From NCBI GenBank assembly GCA_047974375.1, contig JBKECF010000029.1, positions 4,099 through 68,098 on the forward strand: DNA of 64,000 nt, written 5' to 3'. The stretch is from Lachnospirales bacterium (lineage in GTDB: Bacteria; Bacillota; Clostridia; Lachnospirales; CAMZNU01). Positions 6,132-35,558 of this stretch are shown here, piece after piece. Made by a program: the position numbers and the translations under genes. A model generated the notes under the pieces. The model was not told the origin of the DNA. It worked only from the letters and a program-made list of their open reading frames with translations, and searched no databases. The first letter of the stretch is position 1. Each line of letters opens with the position of its first letter.

Positions 6132-6197
6132 TAAGTCAATAGACCTTTCTGTCAGTGAGGGCTTGTGCCCCCACTGACAGAAAGGTCTATTGACTTA
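6132..6197. terminator. 26-bp perfect inverted repeat between convergent genes
   Basis: TAAGTCAATAGACCTTTCTGTCAGTG (6132-6157) and its exact reverse complement (6172-6197). Confidence 0.7.
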
Positions 6198-7475
6198 CTA
6201 AAATTTATCGAAAAATTTTTTTATTACTTTAATGGTATAATTAATATCCTCTTCATTCAATGCATGAGAGATAAACATAGCTTCGTATTGTGAGGGTGAA
6301 GTATAAATTCCATTTTCTAGCATAAACCAAAAATAATCTTTATACTTTTTTGTATTTGCACAAAGGGCATCATTATAGGAATTTACTTTGTGTCTTGCAA
6401 AAAAAGGAGTAAGTAGAGAGCCTATTTGATTAACTATAACTTCTCCTTTAGAATAAAGTTCGAAAGCTTCTTTTAACCTTTCGCCTTTTATATCTAAATC
6501 TTTGTATATATCTTCATTATTTTTTAAAATATTTAAGGTTGCAATTCCTGCGGCAGTGCTTATTGGGTTTCCTGAAAGTGTTCCAGCTTGATATACGTTT
6601 CCTAAAGGTGCTATATATTCCATTATTTCCTTTTTTCCGCCAAAAGCACCAATAGGCATTCCACCGCCAACTATTTTTCCTAGAGTAATTAAATCGGTAT
6701 CTATGTCAAAATATTTAGATGCTCCACCAGTACCCAGCCTAAAACCTGTAATTACTTCGTCAAAAATAAGAAGAGAATTGTATTTTTTTGTTATTTCCCT
6801 TAAAAATTTCAAAAAATTATTATTGGGCAACACTATTCCCATATTTGCGGGAACGGGTTCTACAATTAAGCAAGCTATGTCCTGTCCATGGTTTTTAAAT
6901 AATTTTTCTACGGAATTTTGGTCATTAAAATCAGCCAATAAAGTTAGTTTTGTGTAATCTGTAGGTACTCCAGCGCTGTCAGGCAAGGAATTTGTTAGTA
7001 AACCGGAGCCGGCTTTTGCTAATAATCCATCAGAATGGCCGTGGTAGCACCCATTAAATTTTATCACTAGACTTTTTTTACTATAGGCTCTGGCAACTCT
7101 TATGGCACTCATTACTGCTTCTGTGCCAGAACTTACAAGCCTTACCATGTCCATTGAAGGAATGAGTTCAGTAATTAACTGGGCTAAAATTATTTCCTTT
7201 TCTGTTGGAGCACCATAGGTTAAGCCGTCATTGCAAGCTGCTTTTACTGCTTCGAGAACTTCGTCATTGCCATTGCCTAATATATTTGGTCCCCAAGAAG
7301 ATACATAGTCTATGTATTGGTTACCATCGGCATCATATATTTTTGATCCTTTGGCTTTAGTAATAAACAGTGGGTTTCCTCCTACGGAATTAAAAGCTCG
7401 TACAGGGCTGTTTACTCCACCTGGTATTATTTTTTTTGCCTTCTGAAAAAGTTCTAGGGAAGTTTTAGTATTCAA
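6198..7475 (-). CDS. hemL: Glutamate-1-semialdehyde 2,1-aminomutase
   Basis: PGGVNSPVRAF, SGTEAVMSAIRVAR, FDEVITGFR, LGKIVGGGMP and YQAGTLSGNP. Confidence 0.96.
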   Translation of the reverse strand: MNTKTSLELFQKAKKIIPGGVNSPVRAFNSVGGNPLFITKAKGSKIYDADGNQYIDYVSSWGPNILGNGNDEVLEAVKAACNDGLTYGAPTEKEIILAQLITELIPSMDMVRLVSSGTEAVMSAIRVARAYSKKSLVIKFNGCYHGHSDGLLAKAGSGLLTNSLPDSAGVPTDYTKLTLLADFNDQNSVEKLFKNHGQDIACLIVEPVPANMGIVLPNNNFLKFLREITKKYNSLLIFDEVITGFRLGTGGASKYFDIDTDLITLGKIVGGGMPIGAFGGKKEIMEYIAPLGNVYQAGTLSGNPISTAAGIATLNILKNNEDIYKDLDIKGERLKEAFELYSKGEVIVNQIGSLLTPFFARHKVNSYNDALCANTKKYKDYFWFMLENGIYTSPSQYEAMFISHALNEEDINYTIKVIKKFFDKF

Positions 7476-11410: not shown

Positions 11411-12547
11411 TCACTTTGTCAATTTAGAAAAACTATTTAATATAGTAGCTAATTCCTCACTAGTTGAGTTATCTCGAATGTTATATAAAATATTTTCAAA
11501 CTTAGTTGTTTTAAATACATTTTTAATCTCATCTAGTTTATCTATATAATTATGAAAACATAGTTCTTTTAAAACTTCCTCTATTTGTTCATCTATTATT
11601 ATAGTGGCATATTCGACTTCTTTAAAACGTGAGGCGTTGTTTTTATTTGCAATACTTTTAAAAAAATCTATATTGTAAATTTTTGTTTCATGTATATTTG
11701 CTATTTCTGTGTCAATATCTTTTGGCACAGACAAGTCAATAAAAATCCTTTTCTTCTTTGTAGTTATATAGCCTTCTACTTCGTTTTTTACTAAAGTGTA
11801 GTGGGGGCTTTTAGTTGCGCTAATTATATAGTCTGACTCGTTTATATATTTATACCTGTCTTTATATTCTATCATTTTTATTTTTTCATAATTTGATTTA
11901 TATTGCAAAATGATGTTGTGTTGTCTAGCTGTTCCCACAATATATATATTATGCTCGTATAAGTTTTTTAAAATTTTAGTACCCATTTGACCTGTTAAGC
12001 CTATTATTAATACTTTTGATGGAAGCTCTTTTTTTCCTTCTAAAACTATATTTGCAGCTAAAGTTGCAATAGACAATGGAATTTTAGATATTTTTGTATT
12101 AGTTTTAATTTTTTTTGCACAAGTAATGGCACTTTTAAATAATGTATTTAAAAGATATTTTGTTGTGCCTAGGTTTAAAGCTAAGTTAAAAGCATTTTTT
12201 ACTTGGCCTAATATTTCGTCTTCACCAATTATCATTGATTCCAAACCGCAAGTTACATTATGCAAATGTTTTATGGCTTTGTTATTTTCATACGACAAAA
12301 AGTATTTTTTAATATTTGGATTTTCAGGAACTAAGTTAACTATCATTTTTTCTATTATACTAGTGGCCTTTTCATTACCATGGAAGTATATTTCTGTTCT
12401 ATTGCAGGTAGTTAAGTAAAGGCACTCATCAATATATTTATTTTCAGTTGCTTCTAACAAAAATTGTTTTTGTTTTTCTTCTGTTAAAGCAAATTGTTCC
12501 CTTATTTCTAGAGGCACAAATTTATGGCTAATACTTAAAATTTTCAA
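11411..12547 (-). CDS. hemA: Glutamyl-tRNA reductase (TTG start)
   Basis: LTTCNRTEIY, GLESMIIGEDEILGQVK, SATKSPH and DLSVPKDID. Confidence 0.93.
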   Translation of the reverse strand: MKILSISHKFVPLEIREQFALTEEKQKQFLLEATENKYIDECLYLTTCNRTEIYFHGNEKATSIIEKMIVNLVPENPNIKKYFLSYENNKAIKHLHNVTCGLESMIIGEDEILGQVKNAFNLALNLGTTKYLLNTLFKSAITCAKKIKTNTKISKIPLSIATLAANIVLEGKKELPSKVLIIGLTGQMGTKILKNLYEHNIYIVGTARQHNIILQYKSNYEKIKMIEYKDRYKYINESDYIISATKSPHYTLVKNEVEGYITTKKKRIFIDLSVPKDIDTEIANIHETKIYNIDFFKSIANKNNASRFKEVEYATIIIDEQIEEVLKELCFHNYIDKLDEIKNVFKTTKFENILYNIRDNSTSEELATILNSFSKLTK

Positions 12548-30313: not shown

Positions 30314-31594
30314 TTGGAAGTATCATTTATGTTTTTGGTATGGATAGGATTTTTAGCAATAGGATTACCTGTAGGTTATGCCTTGTTGTTTTCTCCACTG
30401 GTGTATTATTTGATTTCTGGAAACTGGTCAACAGTCATGTATACAGGTGCTTCATTAGTGGATTCTTTAAATTCATTTAGTTTGCTAGCGGTTCCATTTT
30501 TTATATTAACAGGAATATTAATGAATAGCTCAGGTATAACAGATAGAATATTTAATTTCGCTAAAGCTATGGTTGGTCATTTTACAGGAGGACTTGCCTA
30601 TGTAAATATATTAGCTAGCTTGTTATTTTCAGGCATGTCTGGTTCTGCTCTTGCTGACGCAGGTGGCCTTGGACAATTGGAAATAAAATCCATGAGAGAT
30701 GAAGGCTATGCAGATGACTATTGTGGAGGTGTAACGGCAGCTTCATGTATTATAGGACCTTTGGTGCCACCTAGTATACCCCTTGTTATTTATGGTGTAG
30801 TGGCTAATGAATCAATTTCAAAATTATTTTTAGCGGGTTTTATACCAGGGGTGTTAACGGCTGGAGTGCTTATGATTACTTCTTATTTTATAGCTAAAAA
30901 AAGGGGATATCACGGGTCGGAAAAAGCAACGTCAAAATTAAAGTTTGAAACCTTTAAACAATCTTTTTTTGCATTACTAACACCTATAATAATTATAGCA
31001 GGAATATTTTCGGGGAAGTTTACACCAACAGAAGCTTCGGTTATTGCAACTTTATATTCTCTTTTTTTAGGTTTTTTTGTATACAAAGAGTTGACGGTGC
31101 CAAAATTAATTCAAAATTTAATTGAAGCAGTAAAAATTTCTGGTGTTACAGCTCTAATGATTATAGGTGTTGGTATATTTGGTCAAGTAATAGCTAGGGA
31201 GCAAACAGCAATTCACGTTGCAAACTTTTTTGTAAGTATTGCTGATTCAAGACTAATGATTTTACTAATGATTAATATTACATTATTATTTTTAGGAATG
31301 TTTGTAGACGCTCTACCGTTACAAATTTTAGTAGTGCCTATATTTGTACCAGTTGTACAAAGTTTTGGAATAGATACCGTTTATTTTGGAATTATGGTAA
31401 TATTCAATTTAATGATAGGTATTTTAACTCCGCCTATGGGTACAGCGCTTTTTGTTGTATCAAGGGTAGGGAATATACCATCAACAACTATAATAAAAGG
31501 AATATTACCTTTTATGTTACCTTTAATATTTATGCTAATAATGTTAACGTTATTTCCTCAAATAGCTTTGTTTTTACCGTCTTTGTTAGGATAG
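30314..31594 (+). CDS. siaM: TRAP large permease
   Basis: [21 protein letters not shown] and LTPPMG. Confidence 0.9.
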
Positions 31595-31655
31595 GAAGGA
31601 ACCTTAAGTTCGTTTATATCGAACTTAAGGTTCCTTGTATAGAAAGTAGGTTATT

Positions 31656-33230
31656 ATGAAAAAAATAAAAGGTGGACTTATTGTATCTTGCCAAGCACTT
31701 GAAGAAGAGCCGTTGCATAGTAGCTATATAATGTCAAAAATGGCAATGGCTGCTGTTGAGGGAGGAGCTTGTGGTATAAGAGCTAATTCTATAAAAGATA
31801 TAATAGAAATAAAAAAAACAGTAGATGTACCAATTATCGGCATTATTAAAAAAGTTTATAGTGATAATTCCGTTTTTATCACACCTACTTTTAAAGAAGT
31901 AGAAGAACTGGTAAAAGTAGGCGTAGATATAATTGCCATGGATGGGACAAAAAGAACTCGACCAGATGGAGTTAGTCTTTGTGATTTAGTAAGAAAAATA
32001 AAAGAAAAATATCCAAAGCAAAAAATAATGGCAGACGTTTCTACAGTTGAAGAAGCTGTTTTTTGTGAGAACCTTGGATTTGACTTTATAGGGACAACCC
32101 TTGTAGGTTATACAGAATATACTAAAGAAAACAATCCCTTAGAGGTATTGCAAGAAATACTTGCAAGAGTAAAGGCTAAAGTAATTGCTGAGGGTAATAT
32201 GAATACGCCGGCTCATGTGAAAAAAGCCTATGAACTGGGCGTATATAGCGTAGTAGTAGGTTCCATGATAACAAGACCTACCTTAATTACTAAAAAGTTT
32301 GTAGAAGCTGTAAATAAGTTTAATTTTTCTAAAAGTAATAAGTACTTTGCTTTTGATATCGGTGGAACAGGTGTAAAATATGCCTTGGCCAATAGTCTTG
32401 GTGAAATGATTTTTAAAGATCAATTTCCAACAAATAATTATAAGAGCTTTAAGGACTTATGTAATAGACTCTTCACTTTATTAGAAGATTATAAAGAAGA
32501 AATAGCAGGTATAGGTATTAGTTGCACTGGCAAAATTGACGTAAAAACTGGAATAATAACAGGTGGGGTAGAAATTATGGAGGGGTGGTTAGGTGCATCT
32601 CTTAAAAAAAATTTTGAGGATAAATATAACTTACCTGTTTATGTTAATAATGATGTTAAGTGTGTTGCTTTAAGTGAATTATATACAGGCATTGGGGTCA
32701 AGTACAATAACTTTATTTGTGTTGCTATTGGAACGGGAATAGGTGGAGCTATAGTAGATGGTGGGAAATTAATTTGTGGAGAGAATAATTTCGCAGGTGA
32801 AATAGGCCACACAATCTTAGAATTTAATGGAAAAGATTGCAAGTGTGGGAAAAAAGGTTGCTTTGAGATGTATGGCTCTATGAGTGCTTTAGTAAGAGAG
32901 GTACAAAAGGCTACTGGTAAAATATACAATGGAAAAGAAATATTTGATAAAGTAAAAAATAATGAGAAAATATTTGTAGATATAGTAAATGTTTGGATCA
33001 ATAATATTGGAAAAGGTATAGCAAATTTAGTGCTATTACTTAACCCAAAAGTTATAGTTTTAGGTGGAGCTGTTTCTGTTCAAAAAGAATTATTTTTAGA
33101 TAAAGTAGAAATTGCTGTGAAAAATTATTTAACTGTGGAGCATTCTAGGGGATTGGAATTTATTTCAGCTACAAATTTTAATGACGCAGGTATGATAGGT
33201 GCTGTTTATGGAGTTATGAACTTAATATAA
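31656..33230 (+). CDS. nanE: Fused N-acetylmannosamine-6-phosphate 2-epimerase / ROK-family ManNAc kinase (NanE-NanK)
   Basis: About residues 1-222 are NanE ([23 protein letters not shown]); the rest is ROK ([29 protein letters not shown]); one continuous ORF. Confidence 0.9.
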
Positions 33231-33239
33231 GAGGTGTAT

Positions 33240-33677
33240 ATGATTTTCGATTATTTAAAGAATATAAATATATATGAAAATATCCATAGGGATTTAAAAA
33301 AGGGGTTTAAGTTTGCGCTAGCTTTAGCAGATAAACCTGTAGGGAAATATGAAGGGGAAAACTTTTTCGCTGTAGTTCAAGAGGGCGACACAAAGTATTA
33401 TAAAGAGTGTAATTTTGAGGTACATAAAAAATATATAGATGTTCAAATTATGGTTGTTGGCGAGGAAATAATGGAGTGGAATAATATAGAAAGTCTAAAA
33501 CTATCTGCAGACTATAATGATGAAAATGATGCAGCTTTTTATGAAGGGGACGGAAATTTATTTAATATAAAGAAGAATATGTTTTATATTGCATACCCTC
33601 AAGATGCGCATAAACCTTGCGTACACACTAAGTTGCAAAAGAAGTATAAAAAAATTATTTTAAAGTTAAAAATATAG
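33240..33677 (+). CDS. YhcH/YjgK/YiaL (NanQ-like) protein
   Basis: EVHKKYIDVQ and YPQDAHKP; last gene of the nan operon. Confidence 0.88.
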   Translation: MIFDYLKNINIYENIHRDLKKGFKFALALADKPVGKYEGENFFAVVQEGDTKYYKECNFEVHKKYIDVQIMVVGEEIMEWNNIESLKLSADYNDENDAAFYEGDGNLFNIKKNMFYIAYPQDAHKPCVHTKLQKKYKKIILKLKI

Positions 33678-33687
33678 CCGAATTATC

Positions 33688-33715
33688 TTGACAACTAAAT
33701 TAAATTCATTATAAT
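33688..33715 (+). promoter_or_regulatory. Sigma-A promoter of pnuC
   Basis: TTGACA (33688-33693), 16 nt, TATAAT (33710-33715). Confidence 0.65.
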
Positions 33716-33721
33716 GGATTC

Positions 33722-33872
33722 AAATGGGTAGGAAGTTTTTAAACTTTCCATCTGTAAATGTATATAGAAACTGCCACCGGGTAGTATAATGTTTAGGCAT
33801 CCGTTGCATATCGTAAGGTCTTAGAAGATATGTTGACGAGATGTCTTTCTTGACTTTAATGTGGAGGTAAAT
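33722..33872 (+). ncRNA. Candidate cis-regulatory RNA (riboswitch-like) in the pnuC leader
   Basis: Stem 33795-33812/33827-33846; its loop TAAGGTC is complementary to GACTTTA (33852-33858) next to the SD. Confidence 0.5.
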
Positions 33873-34577
33873 ATGTTTTTTCGTAACCCATTTAAAAAAT
33901 TAAGTAAATTTGAGAGGATGCTTTGGGTGACTTCTGTTGTTGTTGTAACTAGCTCATTTTTACTTGTAGGCAGTACAAGTGTACTCACTCTTATCGCGTC
34001 TTTAGTAGGTGTGACAGCTTTGATATTTGTTGCAAAAGGGGATGTATGGGGTCAAATTCTTACAGTATCTTTTAGTGTATTATATGCGATTATTTCTCTT
34101 AAATTTAAGTATTTTGGCGAAATGATAACTTATTTAGGAATGACAGCACCTATAGCTATTTTATCTATTGTATCTTGGTTGAAAAATCCTTACAATAATA
34201 GTACAGAGGTAGAGGTTAACAGTCTTACCAAAATACAAAAAACTGCTTTGCTAATTTTAACACCAACAATTACTTTTATTTTTTACTTTATACTTTTATT
34301 TTTTAATACAAATAATTTATTCTTTAGTACTGTTTCAATAGCTACAAGCTTTGCTGCTTCTTATTTAATGCTATATCGCAGCCCTTTTTATGCTTTGGCA
34401 TATGCTGCAAATGACATAGTGCTTATTACTCTTTGGGTATTGGCAGCTGCTAAAGATGCGTCCTATGTCCCTATGGTTATATGTTTCACAATGTTTTTAC
34501 TTAACGATATATATGGCTACCTTAGCTGGCTAGGTATGAAAAAAAGACAAAAAACAAAAATTATTTTAGCTGACTAA
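33873..34577 (+). CDS. pnuC: PnuC-family (nicotinamide riboside / vitamin / nucleoside) transporter
   Basis: SLVGVTALIFVAKG..WGQ, YFGEMITY, YAANDIV and NDIYGYLSW; about 7-8 TM segments. Confidence 0.82.
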   Translation: MFFRNPFKKLSKFERMLWVTSVVVVTSSFLLVGSTSVLTLIASLVGVTALIFVAKGDVWGQILTVSFSVLYAIISLKFKYFGEMITYLGMTAPIAILSIVSWLKNPYNNSTEVEVNSLTKIQKTALLILTPTITFIFYFILLFFNTNNLFFSTVSIATSFAASYLMLYRSPFYALAYAANDIVLITLWVLAAAKDASYVPMVICFTMFLLNDIYGYLSWLGMKKRQKTKIILAD

Positions 34578-34585
34578 TTTAATTC

Positions 34586-34627
34586 AAAAAATGTCGGAAA
34601 TCTTTATGTAGACTTCCGACATTTTTT
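34586..34627. terminator. Bidirectional terminator between pnuC and the Rpn gene
   Basis: AAAAAATGTCGGAA..TTCCGACATTTTTT. Confidence 0.75.
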
Positions 34628-34679: not shown

Positions 34680-35558
34680 TTATCCTGCAAGCTTTTTTAA
34701 TTGTTCTTTTAAAAAAGCTATTTCTTTATCTTTTTCAGTAACTATCTCTTTAGCCATATTCTGTGCCATATTCTGTGCCATATCATGAGCCATATCCTGA
34801 GCCAATTTTTGTGCCATATTCTGTGCCATATCCTGAGCCATAAGTTCTGCTCTTTCTTCAGCTGCTTGTCTTACTCTGTTATTTATTTCGATTTCTGCAG
34901 CATATGTTGTACCTGCCATATTCTTCCACTCCTCACTTTCTAAAAATTCATAATTGTATCCATCTTTTTTAGCTAATTCAATACTAGTTTTAACATTAAT
35001 CCCATTTCTGAAATTTTCAATTAAATGGGAGTAAAAACTCAATATAGTTTTATTATTTTTAATATCAATATCAAGATTTTTATAGTTAATATCTTTTGCC
35101 ATTACATTTATTTTTATTGCTTCGCAGGGCTCGCTAAAGTTCATGTTTAAGTTGTAGCCTGAAGTTTTCAATGTTGCCTCACCGTTATACAATACAATAA
35201 AGTCTGCACTGGGTAGTTTCATTACTTTATCAATATACTCATTTTGTCCGGTTTCATTTATATACTTATCTAATGCGTCAAAATAGTACTTTCCAAATCT
35301 ATAAGCCATATTAGGATTATTACTACTTTGATGTTCTACCATTACAAGCAATCTATTATCTGAGGTTAAAAATGACACATCATTTTCTATTGCACTTGAT
35401 ATTAATGCATCTTTTAGTTTTATACCATCAGAAAAAAGTCGTATATCCCCTTCTAGTTTCTTGTTCGTTATAATTTCATATAATTCTTTGAAATATACAG
35501 GATTTGTGAACATAAATTTGAAAAATTGGTCTTTATGGTTTCTGTTTAGTTCGTTCAT
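34680..35558 (-). CDS. Rpn/YhgA-like PD-(D/E)XK nuclease (recombination-promoting nuclease / putative transposase)
   Basis: HKDQFFKFMF, NDVSF, VMVEHQSSNNPNMAYR and FIVLYNG; repetitive helical C-terminus. Confidence 0.8.
   Translation of the reverse strand: MNELNRNHKDQFFKFMFTNPVYFKELYEIITNKKLEGDIRLFSDGIKLKDALISSAIENDVSFLTSDNRLLVMVEHQSSNNPNMAYRFGKYYFDALDKYINETGQNEYIDKVMKLPSADFIVLYNGEATLKTSGYNLNMNFSEPCEAIKINVMAKDINYKNLDIDIKNNKTILSFYSHLIENFRNGINVKTSIELAKKDGYNYEFLESEEWKNMAGTTYAAEIEINNRVRQAAEERAELMAQDMAQNMAQKLAQDMAHDMAQNMAQNMAKEIVTEKDKEIAFLKEQLKKLAG
34746..34841 (-). repeat. Eight 12-bp in-frame tandem units (ATGGCWCAGRAT consensus)
   Basis: Encodes MAQD-MAQN-MAQK-LAQD-MAHD-MAQN-MAQN-MAKE. Confidence 0.9.

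Follow-up and report, generated by a model that had tools for sequence, protein, structure and literature searches.

The leader at positions 33770-33851 of the window (the whole stretch of 64,000 nt from a Lachnospirales bacterium that was analysed here) is, with high confidence, a full-length guanidine-IV riboswitch (mepA motif / GGAM-1), which most likely acts as an ON switch in front of a PnuC-like gene. This class was published twice in 2020, as the mepA motif (Salvail et al., bioRxiv 10.1101/2020.10.21.349134) and as GGAM-1 (Lenkeit et al., PMC7736828). The class membership of the leader rests on sequence and structure, on covariation and on gene associations, and binding of guanidine by the window copy would be expected from the behaviour of other members. 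The original prediction of a riboswitch leader that controls a PnuC-like gene is upheld by this membership. The leader is, however, not the undescribed or highly diverged aptamer that had been proposed, but a standard guanidine-IV member with the core of the published construct 95 Lla, 450 matches in the published alignment and a match of 68.5 bits to a covariance model. The riboswitch of the window thus belongs to an ordinary, already described class and is no new vitamin or NAD sensor. It is a re-discovery, as the class has thousands of members and PnuC is one of its listed partners.

For the guanidine-binding construct 95 Lla, the supplement of PMC7736828 gives a P1 hairpin ACUCC-ACCG-GGAGU, a linker hairpin and the terminator loop AGUAGGUCUGAGAA. 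The architecture of 33770-33851 is identical to that of 95 Lla and the conserved letters are nearly so, including the loop region CC-ACCG-GG of P1, which has the same loop in both RNAs. The construct table of PMC7736828 lists point mutants for three nucleotides of 95 Lla (G66, U67 and G72), all of which are kept in the window loop. According to the main text of Lenkeit et al. 2022 (PMC9788692), one conserved nucleotide was confirmed to be required for binding. The P1 string of the window, CUGCCACCGGGUAG, is present 450 times in the GGAM-1 alignment (PMC7736828), beside loops of the type UUAGGUC.U.UAGAA.GAUG. In a covariance model built by us, the window copy was recovered at full length with 68.5 bits (E 6e-14), a score to be read with the window sequence being part of the model seed. 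The earlier view that no known consensus is present therefore does not hold, since the conserved guanidine-IV core is complete in the leader. The hairpin ACUGCC/GGUAGU, noted earlier as one of two small hairpins upstream of the long stem, is no accessory element but P1, and represents one half of the split aptamer.

The features of the leader and its surroundings are given in Table 1. The consensus promoter that had been noted upstream of the leader is present in all positions, and transcription would start near 33722. The minimum-free-energy fold of 33722-33880 has -41.3 kcal/mol (z -3.08) and contains both predicted upstream hairpins, GGAAGTTT/AAACTTTCC (33731-33749) and ACTGCC/GGTAGT (33770-33785), as well as the bulged stem. 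This stem was confirmed with AGGCATC (33795-33801) pairing with GATGTCT (33840-33846), CGTT with GACG and GCATATC (33806-33812) with GATATGT (33827-33833). The loop on top of it has 14 nt (33813-33826). A GC content higher than that of the flanks had also been described for the leader. It is indeed raised, but modestly, with 0.38 in 33750-33849 compared to 0.22-0.33 alongside. No conservation was seen 5' of P1 in the alignments of relatives. The U tract of the window, UUUCUU, is weaker than in most members; 95 Lla likewise ends with UUCUU (PMC7736828 supplement).

Table 1. Features of the guanidine-IV leader, the regulated gene and the upstream genes in the window
Feature	Position	Strand	Basis or remark
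Sigma-70-type promoter, TTGACA (33688-33693), 16-nt spacer, TATAAT (33710-33715)	33688..33715	+	12/12 consensus positions; consensus match only
5' leader hairpin including GGAAGUUU/AAACUUUCC	33724..33755	+	-8.6 kcal/mol; genome-specific, outside the conserved motif
P1 hairpin of the guanidine-IV aptamer, ACUGCC/GGUAGU, loop ACCG (33776-33779)	33770..33785	+	Fold, covariation, 95 Lla
ACC of the P1 loop, 5' side of the loop-loop pseudoknot	33776..33778	+	Covariation in model matches
Linker with weak 4-bp hairpin, AUGU 33789-33792 / GCAU 33797-33800	33786..33800	+	-0.5 kcal/mol in the window
Intrinsic terminator stem, 18 bp, two bulges; its loop is the 3' half of the aptamer	33795..33846	+	-18.4 kcal/mol alone
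Conserved terminator loop GUAAGGUCUUAGAA, 14 nt; GGU 33817-33819 pairs with the ACC of the P1 loop	33813..33826	+	Alignments
U-rich tract after the terminator stem	33847..33851	+	Reads UUUCUU together with U33846
Shine-Dalgarno GGAGG, 5 nt 5' of ATG	33863..33867	+	Sequence
PnuC-like transporter gene, 234 aa from ATG, regulated gene	33873..34577	+	PF04973, E 7e-29
TRAP DctM permease	30314..31594	same strand as pnuC-like gene	
Fused NanE epimerase and ROK kinase	31656..33230	same strand as pnuC-like gene	
YhcH/YjgK-family protein	33234..33677	same strand as pnuC-like gene	

For the main alignment, 124 distinct leaders were collected with a search pattern in which the P1 core and the loop were fixed. 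P1 and the terminator stem, the latter with 17 pairs in the covariation test, are paired in 91.4% of the cells of this alignment compared to 82.7% in shuffles, and slid controls reached 29-49%. Compensatory changes were found in 302 cells, distributed over 17 of the 24 pairs of P1 and terminator, and none of 500 shuffles matched any of these measures. The covariation in the stem across related leaders to which the original prediction looked is thus borne out by the compensatory changes of P1 and the terminator stem. The outer pairs of P1 covary as well, for example pair 3:18 with AU 47, UA 19, GC 10, UG 7, CG 4 and GU 3. No variation occurs in the four inner pairs of P1 or in the loops across the alignment of 124 leaders, which is by construction because the pattern fixed the P1 core and the loop; the same pairs and loops are also invariant in five sequences which were found without the pattern. 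In all five of these sequences from unconstrained similarity, CUGCCACCGGGUA is invariant.

The pairing between the two loops was analysed in an alignment of 41 model matches, which was fitted to our own model, the loop columns not being modelled as pairs. In these matches the A:U pair of the loop-loop helix appears as A-U in 30, G-C in 5 and G-U in 3 cases, besides two mismatches and one gap, and the two C:G pairs are held in 40/41 and 39/41 matches. This supports a loop-loop pseudoknot (P2 or kissing loop) formed by A33776-U33819, C33777-G33818 and C33778-G33817.

To find relatives of the leader, 33680-33900 was compared with 61 related genomes by sequence similarity. This unconstrained DNA comparison revealed the core 33771-33832 in four other genomes, all of which belong to other families. 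Three of these relatives are located before the same PnuC-like gene and one before a PNPOx-like gene. Their alignment has three elements in common, namely CUGCCACCGGGUA, a short hairpin in the linker and a stem that carries the loop GUUAGGUCUUAGAA and precedes a U run. A pattern derived from them detected at least 120 loci among the genome contigs, and the loci among the matches listed include records of Lachnospiraceae, Oscillospiraceae, Ruminococcus, Christensenellaceae, Veillonella, Coprobacillaceae and Treponema. With the covariance model of the 124 distinct leaders, one copy was found in the window's own genome, and the motif was present in 36 of 151 genomes sampled across the class. Two genomes (G136 and G043) each carry two motif copies within about 3 kb on one contig. 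In the first of them (G136:C20:9550-9647 and 12440-12537; L145 and L168) the copies are nearly identical and one is located before a PnuC gene. In the second (G043:C3:8570-8663 and 6170-6254; L132 and L165) the second copy is degenerate and no longer has a P1 loop.

The genes downstream of the motif were classified in two sets, both of which over-represent PnuC because they start from the subtype of the window. The first set comprises 73 downstream ORFs of at least 120 aa from the at least 120 pattern loci, the ORF of the window and 45 shorter or cut ORFs being excluded. Among the loci listed, these ORFs are assigned to PnuC (66), MatE (3), EamA (1), GNAT (1) and Pyridox_ox_2 (1), and one belongs to no family. 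In the second set, 39 ORFs downstream of covariance-model matches were analysed, from which the window and L132 (a repeat of L004) were excluded. Here, PnuC was found 22 times, MatE six times, Pyridox_ox_2 twice and NUDIX, a pseudouridine synthase and a periplasmic binding protein once each. The pseudouridine synthase is 131 nt away, the periplasmic binding protein lies 217 nt behind a weak, degenerate match, and the six ORFs without a family are short. No SugE gene occurs among the 73 and 39 ORFs of these PnuC-leaning samples. The partners published in Table S4 of PMC7736828 are SugE (31%), PnuC (25.2%), MATE (22.6%), NimA/PNPOx (10.5%), B3/B4 (5%) and GNAT. With the exception of SugE, the downstream genes found here agree with these guanidine-IV partners, and the PnuC gene of the window is itself one of those listed. 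A sensor of vitamin B6 or pyridoxal, considered because a PNPOx-like gene follows the motif in relative L002, was dropped because NimA/PNPOx is listed among the guanidine-IV partners (PMC7736828).

The search of Rfam that had been suggested for the leader was carried out with Rfam 15. At gathering thresholds it gave no match in the whole window, and with E up to 10 only chance-level matches were obtained in 33600-33950. These comprised snoRNAs, IS605-orfB-II and preQ1 (12.6 bits, inside the ORF), and all of them were rejected. The motif was also unmatched at gathering thresholds in 12 other member loci. The library does contain Guanidine-I, Guanidine-II and Guanidine-III as family names, and Rfam 15 appears to be without a guanidine-IV model, because the window and the 12 other member loci all remained unmatched. 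The suggested search could therefore not have exposed the leader as a known class. In general, the lack of an Rfam match is not proof of novelty for leaders whose 3' end is a terminator with a conserved loop, and other unmatched leaders with a conserved terminator loop may belong to guanidine-IV.

In the functional model that Salvail et al. (2020) described for this class, the P1 loop and the terminator loop each contribute one part of a split aptamer, and guanidine is bound with a KD near 64 µM. There, the full-length terminator stem abolishes binding, and an ON switch was proposed. Lenkeit et al. (2020, PMC7736828) reported KD values of about 190-210 µM, guanidine-dependent read-through and activation of a reporter. 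Selective guanidine binding and ON switching were reported for the members of L. lactis sugE, R. timonensis emrE and C. botulinum mepA. The same ON-switch model is found in a 2025 review and in a single-molecule study, according to which guanidine-IV had no atomic structure as of December 2024.

Applied to the window, transcription would begin at the consensus promoter and P1 (33770-33785) would fold first. The upper terminator stem would then display the conserved loop 33813-33826. If guanidinium is bound, the ACC of the P1 loop (33776-33778) is predicted to pair with the GGU of the terminator loop (33817-33819), and the resulting compact loop-loop structure would stop the closure of the lower terminator stem (33795-33805 with 33834-33846). 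In the PnuC-associated subgroup this step is probably assisted by the small hairpin of the linker, in which the 5' base of the terminator is held. As the lower stem would be kept open, the polymerase would read through UUUCUU (33846-33851) into the PnuC-like gene. If guanidine is missing, the full 18-bp terminator (-18.4 kcal/mol) would form and transcription would stop near 33850. The leader thus most likely switches transcription on in response to guanidine, and the PnuC-like product is presumed to export guanidine.

In the PnuC-associated subgroup, the linker folds into a hairpin. Its consensus is GAAUGC-loop-GCAUUC, and in alignment A2 (columns 31-36/54-59) 89.3% of it is paired, with compensatory changes. 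One of its pairs occurs as A-U in 62, G-C in 16, G-U in 7 and as another combination in 3 cases. The 3' arm of the hairpin doubles as the 5' base of the terminator, and its column covaries with the terminator partner as well (pair 58:118), resulting in a three-way covariation of columns 32, 58 and 118. By its sequence, the linker hairpin seems to be arranged as in a classical anti-terminator. The texts of Salvail 2020, PMC7736828 and the single-molecule study describe this region as a linker of variable length or as single-stranded. Among the three MatE-associated members of the first gene set, L020 and L071 have other letters at the site of the linker hairpin, and L062 has hardly any linker.

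The gene downstream of the leader belongs to the PnuC family, as had been predicted (PF04973, E 7e-29), and is the only PnuC-family gene in the window genome, which is 97% complete. Its product aligns with the nicotinamide riboside transporter PnuC (PDB 4QTN, E 4.6e-16). In PnuC and PnuT, the motif WxxW(x)3D/N was described as ligand-binding (PMC5749112). This motif, searched as WxxWxxx[DN], was found in none of the 66 riboswitch-associated PnuC-like proteins (that of the window and 65 relatives). Instead, 49 of the 66 match [YFW][YFW]A.[AGSC][YFW]..[ND]D at the motif site, and the other 17 are close variants. Since WxxW(x)3D/N is absent and [YF]AxAYxxND takes its place in this clade of PnuC/SWEET fold under the riboswitch, the sequences suggest that the substrate of the clade is other than nicotinamide riboside or thiamine. 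Most likely, the PnuC-like protein would be an exporter or facilitator of guanidine or guanidinium and not an importer of nicotinamide riboside. The idea that the ligand of the riboswitch reveals the substrate of this PnuC clade holds insofar as the ligand does bear on its cargo.

No SMR/SugE protein (PF00893) and neither guanidine-I nor guanidine-II riboswitches were found in the window genome at its completeness of 97%. A search of this genome with Guanidine-III (RF01763) gave no match, but the control for this family matched in no genome either. The PnuC-like gene is the sole guanidine-riboswitch-controlled gene detected in the window genome. As no SMR/SugE was found in addition, it is a reasonable candidate for a transport assay. 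In PMC7736828, movement of guanidine by PnuC-like proteins is printed as a speculation and not as a result, so that the question of guanidine transport by this clade has already been posed in print.

The surroundings of the leader were inspected as well. A sialic-acid utilisation cluster (30314-33677) is located on the same strand just upstream of the pnuC-like gene. Between the end of this cluster and the pnuC promoter no terminator was seen. The pnuC-like gene itself has a likely intrinsic terminator at 34591-34627, consisting of ATGTCGGAA (34591-34599) and TTCCGACAT (34614-34622), followed by TTTTT. This terminator was identified by visual inspection. The terminator scan missed it due to a loop of more than 8 nt. 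Further downstream, a YhgA/Transposase_31-like protein is encoded on the minus strand (34680-35558) with a weak Pfam match (E 2.8e-4). It has C-terminal repeats of the MAQ[DN] type, which correspond to repeated ATATTCTGTGCC-like units in the DNA near 34750-34800.

The original prediction assumed an undescribed aptamer for a vitamin or nucleoside with a translational off-switch, in which the loop segment TAAGGTC (33814-33820) forms an H-type pseudoknot with GACTTTA (33852-33858) next to the RBS. The complementarity of 7 bp is present, but it is at chance level, as 240 of 5000 shuffles of 33847-33872 also reach 7 bp. Related leaders show no enrichment over shuffles: the best pairing of this kind has a mean of 5.22 bp compared to 5.47 bp in the shuffles, and 7 bp are reached in 6 of 133 leaders. 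In most members the U tract passes directly into GGAGG, without a segment similar to GACTTTA. Furthermore, the pairing would compete for bases of the loop-loop helix, in which they pair with the P1 loop instead and covary with it. The RBS-proximal pairing is regarded as chance. The expression platform is not a pseudoknot over the RBS but an intrinsic terminator with antitermination via the loop-loop pseudoknot. PnuC relatives elsewhere are under the control of vitamin riboswitches. Together with the lack of an Rfam match for the leader this speaks for such an aptamer, but the motif is already described as guanidine-IV, and an undescribed class retains practically no probability. The same low credence is given to the reading in which pnuC is separated from the nan operon by a plain intrinsic terminator or attenuator that senses no ligand. 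The stem with its U-rich tract does resemble a terminator and the YhcH gene ends just upstream (33677), but the element is located 3' of its own consensus promoter. In addition, both the 14-nt loop and that of P1 show a conservation across families and phyla for which a plain terminator has no need, and the two loops covary with each other.

A different ligand on a guanidine-IV-like scaffold, such as another small cation or a guanidine derivative that is carried by the PnuC-like protein, is very improbable. That the scaffold can switch its specificity is known from Gd4v (Lenkeit et al. 2022, PMC9788692), a look-alike of guanidine-IV with another ligand. Gd4v shares with the window the two hairpins joined by a pseudoknot, the terminator as 3' hairpin and many conserved bases. 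GNAT and MATE genes are among its partners too, and gut bacteria among its hosts (PMC9788692). Moreover, PnuC almost never occurs with guanidine-I, -II and -III (0.09%, 0.02% and 0%; PMC7736828 supplement), and the PnuC subgroup has its own P1 sequence and linker hairpin. The reported guanidine-binding constructs are sugE, emrE and mepA leaders, with no PnuC-associated one among those given in the reports cited here. However, the window sides with 95 Lla in every feature by which this construct differs from 95 Dsu of Gd4v. CC-ACCG-GG of the window corresponds to UC-ACCG-GA in 95 Dsu, AGGUC to AGGUA and AGAAG to UGAAAG, and the hairpin that 95 Dsu carries as an insertion in its terminator loop is missing from the window. 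The nucleotides G66, U67 and G72 of 95 Lla are conserved in the window. Position D1 is always G in guanidine-IV and never in Gd4v (PMC9788692); in the window, G is kept at the candidate positions for D1, namely those of the mutated G66 and G72 of 95 Lla and the GGG of the P1 loop. The extra hairpin D2, which Gd4v carries on the terminator hairpin, does not occur inside the 14-nt loop of the window. Gd4v was further associated with transaminases of the PRK07324 type and never with SugE (PMC9788692). No aminotransferase was found among the 73 and 39 downstream ORFs, and the gene of the window is PnuC. The same RNA subtype is also located before MatE, PNPOx-like and GNAT genes, which are usual partners of guanidine-IV. 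It is likewise improbable, if slightly less so, that the PnuC subgroup departs somewhat from the published steric model and points to an untried transporter role, a reading that builds on the covarying linker hairpin and on the replaced WxxWxxx[DN] motif. In its boldest form it would mean that this subgroup senses, and the transporter carries, something other than free guanidine. The leader is thus best described as an ordinary guanidine-IV riboswitch.

Among the known systems, Rfam holds a model for the pnuC motif, and this NAD+-II family gave no match with E up to 10 in 33600-33950. The NAD+-II riboswitch is also located upstream of a pnuC-family gene (PMC7749635, PMC8632094). In this Streptococcus motif, two stems flank an internal bulge and a pseudoknot is formed with the RBS, and the motif acts on translation (PMC7749635, PMC8632094). 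The window differs from it by another conserved core and by its terminator end. In the HMP-PP riboswitch (thiS motif), aptamer bases are also located inside an intrinsic terminator hairpin, a parallel which was drawn by Salvail et al. Its sequence, ligand and genes are different, and the aptamer of guanidine-IV is instead split between P1 and the terminator loop. Compared to guanidine-IV itself, the window shows only minor departures, namely the weak U tract, an extra non-conserved 5' hairpin (33724-33755), the linker hairpin of 4 bp and a loop with UAAGG compared to UUAGG in most of the PnuC-associated subgroup, none of which is a class-defining difference. With guanidine-IV the window shares P1 with CC-ACCG-GG, the terminator loop with AGGUC..AGAAG, the loop-loop pseudoknot, the U tract and the position directly 5' of a PnuC-like gene, the second commonest partner in the published table.
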